Assembly (NCBI GenBank): GCA_000934665.2 | Contig: JYFJ02004100.1 | Location: forward strand, 1 to 35,235 | Source of the DNA: Catajapyx aquilonaris | Lineage: Eukaryota | Length of the DNA: 35,235 bases | Direction of reading: 5' to 3' | Part shown: positions 8,905 to 34,940 of the stretch, piece by piece | Position numbering within the stretch: the first letter of the stretch is position 1 | How the letters are laid out: the number at the start of each line of letters is the position of its first letter | Position numbers and translations under genes: made by a program | Notes under the pieces: model-generated | What the model was told of the DNA's origin: nothing | The model's database searches: none | The model's input: the letters and a program-made list of their open reading frames with translations, nothing else

Positions 8905-11633
8905 TTAGAACTGTCTGTTGGCTAGATTGATCCCAATCCATCTTGCGTAACGTCCAATTCTAGTGTAAAATGTTATACGTGTGGAATCGCAAGTGACTGA
9001 TCCTCTTTGCCCAATCCCGGCGCTGACGAGGCCTTGCAGCGACCAGTGCCTGTCGAATGGTGGGCCACTCAAAAAGACCATTCCTCCGCCACTGTCGCCG
9101 TTGCAAGCACCAGTTCCTAGCAGAGGACATGGCCGTTAGCAATTTCTATATCGTAATTGGTATATTATAAGTACCATCTGTGGTTCCGGCGCAGTATGTT
9201 GTTGAGCGCACGAATGAGCGATGTGCTGACGGGAGACTCTCGATGCAATCTTGAGCTGACATCACGGGTATCTCTGCCATTTGCAGAGAATCAGCGATCT
9301 TTCCGTCATCAGTCAGACCCCATCCCACAACCTATTTGTAATTAACAGGACATATCAACTGCAACTTAGTAGCTCAACTAATGAACTCACGATTCCGGTG
9401 TTTCCATTTTGCAGCAGGGTTTGCTCTTCCAAAGTGTCCGAAGCTGATGGATAACACACTGGACTCACGTATATGTTTATGTCCGCAGGCGAATCCAGTA
9501 TGATCATCGCAATGTCTGAATCGAAATTGGCCGGATTATAGCTCTCGTGTACGAGTATCATTTTTACCTGTGGGGTACAATGATTAATGCGGTTGAACAA
9601 TCTACAATGCCCGTAATATAGGGTGTTAATCTGCCCAAGTTGGTGATCCAGACCTTTTTCATTCCATTGTGTTGCAATTGATTACATATGATCTAATGAC
9701 TTATTGTCAACATGAGCAGAATAACACGCCGTGTAATTAGGCATCATTATTCTACTAACCCTTCTGGTCTGCGAATGTTTTACAGATTCATCGTACCGTG
9801 ATATGTATTTGCCTAGTTGTATGCGCAATACACTCGGTTTATATGCTGAGGTAGTTTTTTGCCATGTGACGCAATGAGCCGCTAGTTGGGAGAATAATGG
9901 CAGGTTATGTTTGTTAAGTGAATTTTTAATTATTTAAATTATTAATTGGCGTGACTTTGGCCTTGTGAAATACCTGTTATGAGTGCATTTTCACTAATAA
10001 GAGAAGCTCCACAATGATAATTCCAGTTGCTCTGGCGGCTGATGTAGATCCCTGCATGCCACGGCCACTGACCTTCATAAGCTGGTTTACCACCAGTGAC
10101 CAAAGGTGCTGCCGGAGCCAGTGATTTACCACACCCTGAAATATATTATTATAATTATATTTGCAATTTCTCCAACAGTATTCTGATATCGAAAGGCATA
10201 CTTGGAATGCATCTGAATGTGTCGCTGGTTTTCCAGGAGCCTTCCCCGAGGCAGGTTGCAAACGACACTGGAACAGGCGTGACAGTTTTGTGAAACTCGT
10301 CGCATTCGACCTGACACTGAGTTCCAACGGGGATGTCTGTGAGGTCTTTGTTGTTGTAATTAGCCCCACATGACACTTTAATTCCTCTCATTTGTGTCCG
10401 GAGATCACGGCAGAAGCCAGGCCTCCCTTTGCCTGAAAAATTATATGGGAATTATGCAGAATAATTAATGTAAAGTGAAGCCTACTTGATCCACTCATCT
10501 TGCAGACGAAACGTCTTAGTGCAGTGCAATACAGGTCATTCCATGTATGCCACGAGTCACCATACATCACTGCGCAATCCTCAGGCAACTCAAAGTCAGG
10601 CTGCCTTTCATCCCAGTTAGTAAAATCAGTCGGAGACCCATCTGTCCACCGCCATTCTATAGTTCCTGATGGAGTCTTGTGGAGTTTGAGCCCAAGATAC
10701 GTGTACCCATGTATTTGTCCTGCGAGAAAATTGATTGCGGTTTGTGCGAGGCCCAGATAAGAGCAAACTTAAGTTACCTTTTAATGAATGAACATACCTA
10801 CAAGATAATCCAGTTCTTCTTTGCTGTGTATGGACGCAAGGTCAGCTTTATCACGCATGTCTTGACATGTGATCCTAGCCCTCTCCCATGTGGTCTGGTA
10901 CGTTGAGAAATAATAGCACACATTATTTCTGAAGTGCCATCCGCTAGGGCAGTCATCTGTCCAGGATGAAAATTATCTGTACACATGTATTTGCTGCGGC
11001 TTGTTAAACCGTACGTACTCTTGTCCGACTTGTAGCTGCAGGCAAAGTTATTCTTCTCTCGGCACAACAAGTTGTACCAGAGCCCCTTTTTGTCATGAGC
11101 AGCTGGATATGTTGCCATGCATTCTTCAGCGGCTGGGTGGCTAGGCTCTCCCGGATTCCAGTTGGTGTACGTAGAAGTAGATCCATCGGTCCAGCACCAG
11201 TTGTTGTTTCCACAATTGCTGTATCCAATCCAGTAATGATTATTCATATGTTCTAAGATGAGATTTAGTTATGATTATTAGTAGTACATAATAAGTTATA
11301 TCATTATGATTCTACATGTTGAGCTCACCCGCCATAAATTTCATTTCTTGCTCACTCTCTATGCTTGCCAAATTTGCAGCCGGATTCTTCTCTTTGCACA
11401 GTCTGCGTGAGTCGTGCCAGTTGAAAAAGGCTGATGTGAAATGCTCGGAGAAGTAGTAGCAAAAGGAGCCGTTTTCTACCCAGCCTTCGGGACAGCAATT
11501 GACTCCAGAATCTGAGGAAATATGCAATCATGTTTTAATTAGGTGTTCATTAATGGATTAATTTGATGAAAATAATATATCTACCTGCCAAAATCCCGAT
11601 GAACAAGACAAGTACTTTACTTGTACTGTACAT
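8905..11633 (-). CDS. Dual C-type lectin-Sushi-serine protease, copy 1 (639 aa, 11 coding exons)
   Basis: Exons 11633-11585, 11511-11329, 11252-11019, 10956-10798, 10719-10486, 10432-10202, 10135-9974, 9881-9760, 9567-9391, 9331-9175, 9116-8905 total 1920 nt, all GT-AG and in phase. Signal peptide MYSTSKVLVLFIGILA; CTL1 EPS/WYN; CTL2 QPD/WND; six-Cys CCP; activation site APL|VTGG; triad AAHC, DSDIA, GDSGGG. Confidence 0.92.
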
Positions 11634-12232
11634 CTTGATAATGGTTAGTGGAAATAACGTTTCTAGTGCTTTTCATTCACCTGTAATGAAATTGGATTTT
11701 AATTTATTATACATATAATTTTGAATTTTATATATTCTAATAGTTTTATCACCTCAGAAACTGTCTTTAAATATTGTTTAGACATAAGTGCGTGCATAAT
11801 CTGAAATCTTTTGGTTAATACAGCCGGACCTTACAGCATGTCATTATGACATTTTCATGCTTGAATATTTCTAGTCTACTTATTACTTTACAGAAGTGAA
11901 TACTTACAATATTCAGTAGACAATGAGAATATTATTCAGTAAAATATGTGTATAAATACGTACATATTGAAGCATTTCAACATCGTTGAGACCGCGTCTG
12001 GCAGCTAATGATGTGCCAACTCTAATAACCGAGGCGTCACCGGCTTTCAACTGATTTCGTAGAAGTCATGCAACTCTTCTTTTTGTCTCAATTGCAGCTT
12101 AATTACGACCTCAGGAGAGTCTCTGCCATTTCATTTTCATAACATACGAAAACTTACCTGAGCGTATTAAACTAATGTATAAATTACGACGCAATATTCT
12201 GTCATCTTGATCTGCCGCAATGTGAAGATCCA

Positions 12233-12272
12233 AACTGACCAGGTTTACAGTCACGTTTCCCCCTCAAGGTCA
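12233..12272 (-). promoter_or_regulatory. Putative core promoter of copy 1: Inr TCAGTT plus upstream TCAAGGTCA motif
   Basis: Minus-strand TCAGTT at 12238-12233 lies upstream of a non-coding-exon donor cag|gtaagt (~12158). TCAAGGTCA at 12264-12272 recurs upstream of the other copies (17566, 21842 variant, 25537, 28941, 33446). Confidence 0.55.
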
Positions 12273-12421
12273 AGGTATGATCAGGTCTTTCTTGATTTTT
12301 TTTATTATAAATTTTTTGCGACTGTTAGTAAGCATCCCTTCGGGGCGAAGTAACCAAGAAAGAGTAAAAGCCTAATACTTCAATGAGGGCACATATGAAC
12401 CAGCCAATTTCTACTTCAACT

Positions 12422-34001: not shown

Positions 34002-34688
34002 TCAGAAGTGTCCAAGAGCGAGGTTGACTCCGATCCACCTGGCGTACCGACCAACTCGGGTGTAAAAAGACACGTAGGATGCATCGCATTTGGCAGTTTG
34101 ACCCTTCCCGATCCCTGCACTGACGATGCCCTGGAGTGACCAGTGCTTGTCAAATGAAGGGCCGCTCAAGAAGACCATCCCTCCGCCACTGTCGCCGTTA
34201 CAAGCGCCAGTTCCTTTAAAAGGGAAAGATGTTGTTAGCAGTGGTCCATCAACAGCTTCCAATATACACGTTACCATCTCCAGCCCCAGCGCAGTAGGTT
34301 GTTGATCTGACAAAAGTGCGATGTGATGGGTCCAGTTTCGCGATGCAATCCTGAGCTGTTATGACTGGTATCTCGGCCATTTGCAGTGTCCCTGAGACTT
34401 CTTCTGTGTCTGTCCGACCCCATCCAACCACCTGTCAAATTATATGATTATGAGTATCTTATTGTCATGCGGTTTCCACACAAAGTAAACGAAACTCACA
34501 ATTCCGGTGTTTCCGTTTTGTAGCAACGTTTGCTCTTCCAAACTTTCAGAAGCTGTTGGATAACACACTGGACTCACGTATACGTTAATGGTCACTGGCG
34601 AGTCCAGTATGATCACAGCAATGTCTGAATCGAAATTGGCCGGATTGTAGCTCTCGTGCACGAATATCCTCTTGATCTGTGGGATTAC

Positions 34689-34775
<87 letters not shown>

Positions 34776-34940
34776 TTGTTTTTAAAATACATTTTTTACG
34801 AAAAAAAAGGGTACGCACTGTTCTTGTCTGCGAATTTGTTTCAGATTCGTTGTAATGCGAGCCATACTTTCCAAGCTGGATTCGCATTTCATCCGCTTTA
34901 AACAACGCAGCAGTTCTTCCCAAAGTCACACAGTGAGCGG
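34002..34940 (-). CDS. Copy 7, last four protease exons only (5' part outside the window or disrupted)
   Basis: AHCVTLGR..., DSDIAVIILDSP, VVGWGRTDTEE, GACNGDSGGG...NLALGHF*. Nearly identical to copy 6, including the last two introns. Confidence 0.85.
34690..34773. repeat. (TA)n microsatellite of about 42 units in a copy 7 intron
   Basis: Directly visible. Copy 6 has a poly-A run at the equivalent position. Confidence 0.97.

Follow-up and report, generated by a model that had tools for sequence, protein, structure and literature searches.

A tandem array of Catajapyx aquilonaris genes joining two C-type lectin domains and a Sushi-like domain to a serine protease of the ModSP/HP14 and gastrulation-defective clade

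The window analysed here, positions 1 to 35,235 of contig JYFJ02004100.1 of Catajapyx aquilonaris (assembly GCA_000934665.2; 35,235 nt), contains seven paralogous genes arranged head to tail on the minus strand between positions 8905 and 34940, six of them complete (G1 to G6) and one partial (G7). Each complete copy has 11 exons and one open frame of 619-644 amino acids (aa), encoding in order a signal peptide, two C-type lectin domains (CTLD1 and CTLD2), a six-cysteine Sushi-like domain and an S1 protease; all 11 exons are accounted for by this order. Copies were detected with tblastn, using 11 exon peptides of G1 as queries against the window, which returned seven collinear minus-strand sets: 8905-11640 (G1), 14072-16859 (G2), 18466-21073 (G3), 22096-24583 (G4), 26191-28573 (G5), 29208-31844 (G6) and 34002-34962 (G7, the last four protease exons only). 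Spliced models were built with GT/GC-AG sites and conserved phase. An earlier note, made from the letters of this DNA, had described a seven-copy array with six complete members and a common 11-exon structure, and had read the domain order as signal peptide, two lectin domains, CCP and serine protease; the tblastn sets and the spliced models confirm the former, and the models together with Pfam matches on the exons confirm the latter. Its copies are thus real, whereas its gene models had to be corrected for GC donors, for the place of the G6 signal exon and for the possible truncation of G7.

All coordinates given below for the genes and their parts are on the minus strand. G1 (8905..11633, complete, 639 aa) has exons 1-6 at 11585-11633, 11329-11511, 11019-11252, 10798-10956, 10486-10719 and 10202-10432, and exons 7-11 at 9974-10135, 9760-9881, 9391-9567, 9175-9331 and 8905-9116. 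G2 (14072..16852, complete, 11 exons, 640 aa) was taken as the reference model; its exon 1 (16804..16852) holds the start codon and a predicted signal peptide (MYSTSKVLVLFIWILA), the hydrophobic N-terminus having been judged by eye. The other complete copies are G3 (18460..21069, 644 aa, with a 4-aa insertion in CTLD2), G4 (22096..24701, 640 aa), G5 (26176..28682, 619 aa, deviant as detailed below) and G6 (29208..32358, 636 aa), whose signal exon (32313-32358) lies 472 nt upstream, behind a first intron of 472 nt. G7 (34002..34940) is limited to protease exons P2-P5, 222 codons with the triad motifs intact, and no first protease exon is recognisable in the 295 nt that remain before the window ends; it may be a truncated copy. 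A long microsatellite of the TA/TATATAC type occupies positions 34690-34800, in the P2-P3 intron of G7.

Three introns have GC donors, namely intron 8 of G3 and intron 7 of both G5 and G6. The donor common to G5 and G6 is the consensus-like GCAAG; that of G3 is weak, and splicing of this intron is a prediction from the sequence. The encoded proteins are 85-89% identical among G1-G4, and 58-65% identical between these four and G5 and G6. G6 and G7 share 91% of their amino acids; at the nucleotide level their 3' 689 nt match at 95.5%, counting introns. Every domain-coding exon starts in phase 1, a textbook sign of module shuffling, and the domain exons are of the phase 1-1 kind. The mature proteins have 29 cysteines in five of the six complete copies and 28 in G5.

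Evidence for transcription comes from comparing contigs of two sequencing runs over the window up to position 28700, that is, over G1 to G5 of the seven copies. The kind of run X5 is unrecorded, and it was taken as RNA-like solely because its contigs skip introns that are kept in the DNA run X1. X5 contigs skip the predicted introns exactly, with CT..AC ends on the plus strand, and X1 contigs show none of these joints. Nine of the ten G2 introns are matched by the listed X5 joints (allowing 0-2 nt of cut ambiguity); the intron after the signal exon has no match among them. A single X5 contig of 1032 nt spans 81 nt of the first protease exon of G2, the Sushi exon, both CTLD2 exons and the second CTLD1 exon, and reaches into the first CTLD1 exon. 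Because one contig joins them, the lectin and protease exons of G2 are co-transcribed, which rules out for this copy the separate lectin and protease transcripts that the earlier note had named as fatal to its idea. Elsewhere in the array, X5 joint 9881/9974 matches the G1 intron 9882-9973, joint 22306/22370 matches the last intron of G4, and G5 has joint 26389/26450 along with a 2086-nt X5 contig that ends on 26098-26389.

The lectin region was assigned from Pfam matches to ten exon open reading frames (ORFs) of G1, where Lectin_C matched three of the four lectin half-exons, one of them at 20.7 bits and hence below the 22.6 cut-off; the first half-exon of CTLD1 had no Pfam match. Matches in the PDB show that both domains resemble CTLDs of the mannose-receptor family as well as other CTLDs. 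In G2, CTLD1 is encoded by exons 2-3 (16219..16723; 16538-16723 and 16219-16452) and is of the long form with nine cysteines, a count by which one may be free, and with degenerate sugar-site motifs, EPS and WYN. CTLD2 (exons 4-5, 15646..16161; 16003-16161 and 15646-15879) has six cysteines and a complete calcium and sugar site, with QPD at 15755-15763 and WND at 15695-15703. The full (E/Q)P(N/D)...E...WND signature is present in CTLD2 of all six complete copies; by motif, this domain is of the calcium-dependent carbohydrate-binding type, and binding is predicted. Its first motif toggles, being QPD in G1, G2 and G4 and EPN in G3, G5 and G6; the EPN form is typical of lectins for mannose-type ligands and QPD of those for galactose-type ligands. 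G3 differs from G1, G2 and G4 at both key residues (GAG CCT AAT versus CAG CCT GAC), though its protein is 85-88% identical to theirs. CTLD1 has an incomplete site, with EPS and WYN or WHN in G1-G4 and EPN and WNN in G5 and G6, so that the latter two carry EPN in both lectin domains. A word-based protein search with the second CTLD2 exon of G2 gave six candidates, none significant; this test is weak, and common CTLD words also gave few.

The domain between the lectins and the protease (G2 exon 6, 15362..15592) carries six cysteines, not the four of a standard Sushi/CCP module. Pfam Sushi nevertheless matched it over its full length in the four copies tested (G1, G2, G5 and G6, in-frame exons) at 24.8-28.3 bits against a cut-off of 20.7. 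An AlphaFold2 model of the exon had a pLDDT (predicted local distance difference test) of 80.4, and the PDB chains listed by Foldseek for this model nearly all contain CCP modules, with template modelling (TM) scores up to 0.63 and E >= 0.02; with no match at E <= 0.001, this is weak support for a CCP fold. A word-based protein search with the G2 exon, also a weak test, gave seven candidates and none that was significant. Alignment shows that the domain is homologous to the six-cysteine domain directly before the protease in ModSP-type relatives, downstream of the best Pfam Sushi match of those proteins. This position is called Wonton in HP14-type proteins (PMC1761132). Our Pfam matches include no Wonton model, and just one six-cysteine domain precedes the protease. 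The name Sushi used in the earlier note stands as a Pfam match; by homology the domain corresponds to the one at the position labelled Wonton. The linker cysteine (CGKSLAP) and the cysteine of PVCYP (C122-type), both of which had been pointed out before, were found in all six complete copies.

The protease of G2 is encoded by exons 7-11 (14072..15296; 15135-15296, 14940-15061, 14559-14735, 14342-14498 and 14072-14283). Pfam Trypsin matched four of the five protease exon ORFs of G1, and exon P2 gave only a sub-threshold, spurious match. The motifs AAHC (His57), (D/E)SDI (Asp102) and G(D/H)SGGG (Ser195) are present in all seven copies, G7 reading xAHC with its first codon cut, and mark an S1A protease; in G2 DSDI lies at 14679-14690, PVCYP (Cys122) at 14616-14630 and GDSGGG at 14249-14266. 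GDSGGG is found in six of the seven copies and is GHSGGG in G5. The codon of Ser195 is AGT.

The protease domain is preceded by the linker CGKSLAP (15274-15294 in G2) and a predicted activation site, P-L|V-T-G-G (15250-15267). Five of the six complete copies have the linker in the form C-G-K-S-L-A-P-A-x-P-L-V-(T/K)-G-G, and G5 lacks the activation site. The linker also resembles C-G-K-K-L-A-A of enteropeptidase, and in alignments the predicted P1 leucine falls opposite Arg15 of chymotrypsinogen C and opposite the lysine before IVGG of enteropeptidase. Aligned relatives likewise have the six-cysteine domain, then C-G-x, then leucine or phenylalanine at P1 and after it (V/I)-T-(N/G)-G or a sequence very near it; cleavage after leucine is predicted from this motif. 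In an alignment with thrombin, the residues are Gly at 189 and 216, Ala at 215 and Thr at 226, from which a non-basic, chymoelastase-like S1 pocket (Gly189, Gly216, Thr226) is predicted. Position 215, within S-A-G at 214-216 (14160-14180 in G2), is alanine in G1-G4, G6 and G7 and valine in G5. Trp215 is near-universal in such proteases. The top PDB sequence matches of the last exon are the engineered thrombin mutants W215A and W215A/E217A.

A HMMER search of 1.84 billion cluster representatives, run with a profile of the last protease exon, gave 391 matches at E <= 1e-3 and none at E <= 1e-30; the family or a close orthologue is therefore absent from that representative library. Among the best 150 matches, the longer ones (76) were scanned with Pfam. 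LDLa and/or Sushi domains were found in 18 of these and GD_N in 21, while Lectin_C was found in none of the 76, and neither was LCCL. The best match, P0001, has the architecture LDLa x4-Sushi-Trypsin and is 43.7% identical to residues 283-631 of G2, which comprise the Sushi-like domain and the protease; the aligned span begins just past P0001's own Pfam Sushi match (241-284). A search with this region of P0001 retrieved LDLa-Sushi-Trypsin proteins of the springtails Folsomia and Orchesella, insect proteins named modular serine protease, and many gastrulation-defective (gd) proteins; PF00059 was found in none of the 120 listed relatives. The G2 protease is 50% identical to that of P0001, 42% to that of springtail LDLa-Sushi-serine protease (SP) proteins, 37-41% to gd, 37% to Anabrus ModSP, and 30-31% to frog MASP-2 and MASP-1.

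These relationships were also captured in trees. In a careful maximum-likelihood tree of 38 rows, ModSP, gd and the family of the array formed a clade with support of 98/93. Within it the array family was monophyletic (100/100) and sister to P0001 (92/84), and grouped with unnamed and collembolan LDLa-Sushi-SP proteins (90/77), while the named insect ModSPs formed a subclade of their own (99/93). MASP-1 and MASP-2, a proclotting enzyme and others fell outside. A quick tree of 82 rows agrees on the clade (98 by SH-aLRT, the Shimodaira-Hasegawa-like approximate likelihood-ratio test); one of its members, P0011, has a Pfam match to Ldl_recept_b, not LDLa. Both trees were built without an authentic factor C sequence. 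On sequence grounds, the protease belongs to the arthropod ModSP/HP14 and gd clade, and these relatives taken alone point to a probably arthropod genome. The earlier note had proposed ModSP/HP14 and gd as comparators, and the choice was apt, the protease falling in exactly that clade of autoactivating P1-Leu initiator proteases; the link to a lectin pathway that it also drew is not supported, since the protease is not MASP-like, with MASP-1 and MASP-2 outside the clade and 30-31% identical.

Divergence among the closely related copies is unevenly distributed. Among G1-G4, amino-acid-changing and silent steps number 103 and 44 in the two CTLDs versus 52 and 75 in the Sushi-like domain and protease (Fisher p=1.6e-6). 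Pairwise ratios of nonsynonymous to synonymous divergence (dN/dS) are 0.20-0.55 for CTLD1, 0.44-0.78 for CTLD2, 0.11-0.30 for the Sushi-like domain and 0.14-0.27 for the protease, overall 0.11-0.78 at dS 0.11-0.32. They are below 1 in all four domains and exceed 1 only in the 16-codon signal-peptide exon, in some pairs. Since dS over the whole coding region is ~0.16-0.25, unused copies would have had time to decay; the open frames are under purifying selection. The word "diversified", applied to the array in the earlier note, holds up in that change is concentrated in the lectins, along with the QPD/EPN toggle.

The deviant copy G5 has lost the L-V-T of the activation site, has His in place of Asp194 (GHSGGG) and lacks one CTLD1 cysteine. 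It is spliced and transcribed (X5), and its protease is under purifying selection relative to G6 (dN/dS 0.20). Because both partners of the activation salt bridge are lost, the sequence suggests that G5 is not activatable in the usual way; perhaps it is a regulator. That the new N-terminal residues and Asp194 were lost together argues that the salt bridge matters in the other copies.

Several features surround the array or lie between its members. An intergenic block upstream of G1-G4 (12031-12412, 17331-17726, 21613-21900 and 25395-25622) is shared at 77-85% identity, and may belong to the unit that was duplicated or be an element, regulatory or repetitive, that the four genes have in common. 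Some 45 nt ahead of the ATG of the same four genes (~11680, 16895, 21115 and 24745) lies TTCATTACAGGTGAATGCAA, a short sequence and the only conserved block in the upstream alignment, which could mark an initiator-like start site or serve as the acceptor of an intron, otherwise unseen, in the 5' untranslated region. Between G1 and G2, plus-strand ORFs at 12703-13450 contain "LVDTGA", by eye like a retroelement aspartic protease, and have no Pfam match at E <= 0.01; this segment, which shows high depth and variants in run X1, may be the degraded remains of a retrotransposon that inserted between these copies. Summed X1 contig depth reaches 1331 at 21416-22079 and 3445 at 24736-25399, versus ~30-50 elsewhere, which points to high-copy repeats in the G3-G4 and G4-G5 intervals. 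A single N at 24830, in a long poly-C upstream of G4, is probably an assembly gap; one X1 contig omits 9 nt at 24822.

On the other side of G1, a two-exon-looking gene on the plus strand (7885-8560) stands tail to tail with it; the product has an acidic N-terminus and a weak RRM_1 match (E 8.5e-4, below the cut-off), and by eye resembles ABT1/ESF2. Positions 6500-7710 are repeat-rich and include a minisatellite at 7343-7708 with a period of ~80 nt (91-96% identity by self-blastn). Further on, at 1845-5400 of the minus strand, lies a gene resembling adhesion G-protein-coupled receptors, with 7tm_2 on the ORFs 2371-2736 (E 2.9e-20) and 1845-2042 and, by eye, a motif like the G-protein-coupled receptor proteolysis site in the ORF 2737-3108.

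What kind of protein do these genes encode? The insect modular serine proteases, Drosophila ModSP, Manduca HP14 and Tenebrio MSP, resemble the array proteins in belonging to the same protease clade and in having a P1 leucine site, GDSGGG, a non-basic S1 pocket and no clip domain. HP14 orthologues have four or five LDLa repeats followed by Sushi, Wonton and SP, with the activation sequence "SKTL IVNG", GDSGGG and elastase-type pockets (PMC1761132). ModSP is described as chymoelastase-like with a preference for leucine at P1; it autoactivates in the presence of PGRP-SA/GNBP1, or of GNBP3, together with the respective ligands (PMC10732536). In the case of proHP14, the LDLa region is bound by recognition proteins that gather the zymogen on microbes, leading to autoactivation (PMC10795361). 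The array family further shares with ModSP and HP14 a six-cysteine Sushi-like domain that immediately precedes the protease and is joined to it by a C-G-x cysteine. It differs in having one such domain where they have Sushi and Wonton, in being a tandem array of at least seven copies, and in its head, which consists of two CTLDs, so that the protein could do its own recognition instead of relying on PGRP, GNBP or betaGRP. No Ldl_recept_a match was found on any G1 exon ORF, where ModSP and HP14 have four to five repeats. The protease module thus bears the hallmarks of this type of initiator, while the module known to recruit such proteases is gone.

We see an even chance that these genes encode secreted, disulfide-rich mosaic zymogens of the clip-less initiator lineage of the ModSP/HP14 type, in which the LDLa repeats and the first Sushi domain were replaced by two CTLDs. 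In such a protein CTLD2, and perhaps also CTLD1 in G5 and G6, would bind repetitive glycans in a calcium-dependent manner, with galactose-type specificity (QPD) in G1, G2 and G4 and mannose-type specificity (EPN) in G3, G5 and G6. Zymogens crowded on a glycan surface would cleave each other after the leucine in P-L|V-T-G-G, a residue that would fit the predicted non-basic, chymoelastase-like S1 pocket. The CGKS and PVCYP cysteines would keep the protease attached to the chain of lectin and Sushi domains; the Cys1-Cys122 bond is the homologous tether in enzymes of the chymotrypsin and enteropeptidase types. The active enzyme would in turn cleave a downstream protease of a humoral cascade. A bolder version, which we put forward tentatively and which may well prove wrong, is that this lineage has merged the two opening steps of the arthropod humoral cascade, those of a recognition protein and of ModSP, into one polypeptide and has expanded it into a germline repertoire of self-triggering sensors (Gal-type G1, G2 and G4; Man-type G3, G5 and G6), with the non-activatable G5 as a decoy or regulator. 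This would be the principle of factor C reached independently on a ModSP scaffold.

Several observations weigh against the lectin-headed initiator. Replacement of Trp215 could mean low or cofactor-dependent activity, or a collapsed active site. The sugar site of CTLD1 is degenerate in G1-G4 (EPS/WYN), and the higher divergence of the lectins could stem from relaxed constraint rather than selection for new ligands, dN/dS never exceeding 1 there. In the absence of LDLa repeats the known recruitment route of ModSP proteases does not apply. The kappaB-like motif GGGRNNYYCC is not enriched (2 matches versus 2.97 expected). No orthologue with such an architecture was found in another organism among the relatives searched, so conservation cannot vouch for function. 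The one RNA-like run is of unrecorded origin.

Other systems combine similar parts. Horseshoe-crab factor C autoactivates on microbial ligand and is cleaved at a non-basic residue. It too unites C-type lectin, CCP and S1 protease domains in a single chain, and its C-terminal half is given as CLECT-CCP4-(Pro-rich)-CCP5-SP (PMC10090249), so that CLECT-CLECT-CCP-SP here compares with CLECT-CCP-CCP-SP there. Factor C differs in having a Cys-rich region, EGF, three more CCPs, LCCL and one CTLD; none of the domains of its N-terminal half has a Pfam match on the G1 exon ORFs, and there are no spare exons. The C-terminal half of factor C is closer in layout than was allowed in the earlier note, which called factor C fused but different in layout. 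Collembolan and ant ModSP-type proteins carry the pipeline name "Limulus clotting factor C" in databases. In the vertebrate systems MBL/ficolin with MASP, and C1q with C1r/C1s, lectin recognition is likewise coupled to an autoactivating CCP-SP protease; the Sushi-like model matches CCPs of MASP-1, MASP-2, C1r and C1s, among others (all at E >= 0.02), and the AGT codon for Ser195 in the array counts as a further similarity. These systems differ in that recognition and protease are on separate chains and that MASP has the order CUB-EGF-CUB-CCP-CCP-SP with an Arg|Ile activation site; no CUB or EGF match was found on the G1 exon ORFs, and P1 is leucine here. The gd proteins form a sister or neighbouring branch of the same clade with an activation site of the same type (TP-L|VTNG in P0102), and differ in carrying GD_N and neither lectins nor Sushi, and in a developmental role. 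Lectin-protease fusion as such is not new: CLSP1-3 of culicine mosquitoes are lectin-protease fusions in a tandem cluster whose CTLDs vary between QPD and EPN (PMC6070988). They differ in having an N-terminal SP that is apparently a different protease, one C-terminal CTLD and no Sushi domain, and CLSP2 is a negative regulator (PMC6070988). The closest listed matches to them were Aedes serine proteases of ~230-270 aa, and they are likened to the array by description only. Our literature searches turned up no protein with two CTLDs, a Sushi-like domain and a ModSP-type protease, and lectin domains were lacking among the relatives (Lectin_C in 0 of 76 scanned, PF00059 in 0 of 120 listed). By sequence, the family reads as a ModSP-type initiator with a lectin head, made of familiar parts in a combination not met among the relatives and papers searched.

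Three other explanations have to be weighed against a lectin-headed initiator. One is that these are secreted lectin-proteases without an immune role, acting in digestion, in processing of an egg or embryo matrix as gd does, in moulting or in glycoprotein clearance, with the expansion serving dosage or substrate range. The developmental gd proteins, the other branch of the same clade, account for 21 of the 76 relatives scanned, exon shuffling often yields mosaic proteases, the domain exons of the array being phase 1-1, and the kappaB count offers no immune regulatory signal. Yet the closest relatives are LDLa-Sushi-SP proteins, not gd, and a complete, toggling calcium and sugar site together with lectin-biased change fits varied foreign glycans better than a single developmental substrate. 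We regard this explanation as a serious contender that is nonetheless unlikely to be right. Quite improbable, in our estimate, is that the proteins are immune modulators like CLSP2, cleaved into lectin and protease so that the lectin, once released, would bind microbes and dampen melanisation or Toll signalling. CLSP1-3, whose CTLDs are likewise QPD or EPN, set a precedent for tandem lectin-protease fusions, CLSP2 undergoes cleavage upon fungal infection and has a negative regulatory role (PMC6070988), and G5, with GHSGGG and no L-V-T, is transcribed yet looks unable to be activated in the usual way. The domain order of CLSPs is reversed (SP-CTLD), whereas the array protease lies in the ModSP/gd clade and has that clade's activation site, and the CGKS/PVCYP cysteine pair suggests that the chains remain joined.

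At the far end is the idea that the array consists mostly of decaying duplicates, non-functional or mis-modelled, with no coherent product. G7 is truncated within the window, the active-site region of G5 is aberrant, G3 needs a weak GC donor, and word-based searches found no relatives of the lectin or Sushi exons. Against this, all six frames of 619-644 aa are uninterrupted and keep their splice phases, dN/dS is 0.11-0.78 at dS 0.11-0.32 among G1-G4, and spliced contigs exist for G1, G2, G4 and G5; we consider the idea very improbable.

For the reading of the array as lectin-headed initiators, the biological interest lies in the entry point of the cascade. Insect ModSP/HP14 depends on separate recognition proteins; a lectin-headed version, if true, would wire recognition directly to proteolysis and would mean that exon shuffling can rewire the point at which an immune cascade is entered. 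The array would also offer close paralogs in which a two-residue QPD/EPN switch may retune the cascade trigger. In practical terms, such proteins could serve as single-component glycan-triggered reporters, as factor C does for endotoxin. If the family is digestive or developmental, it would be one more mosaic protease.

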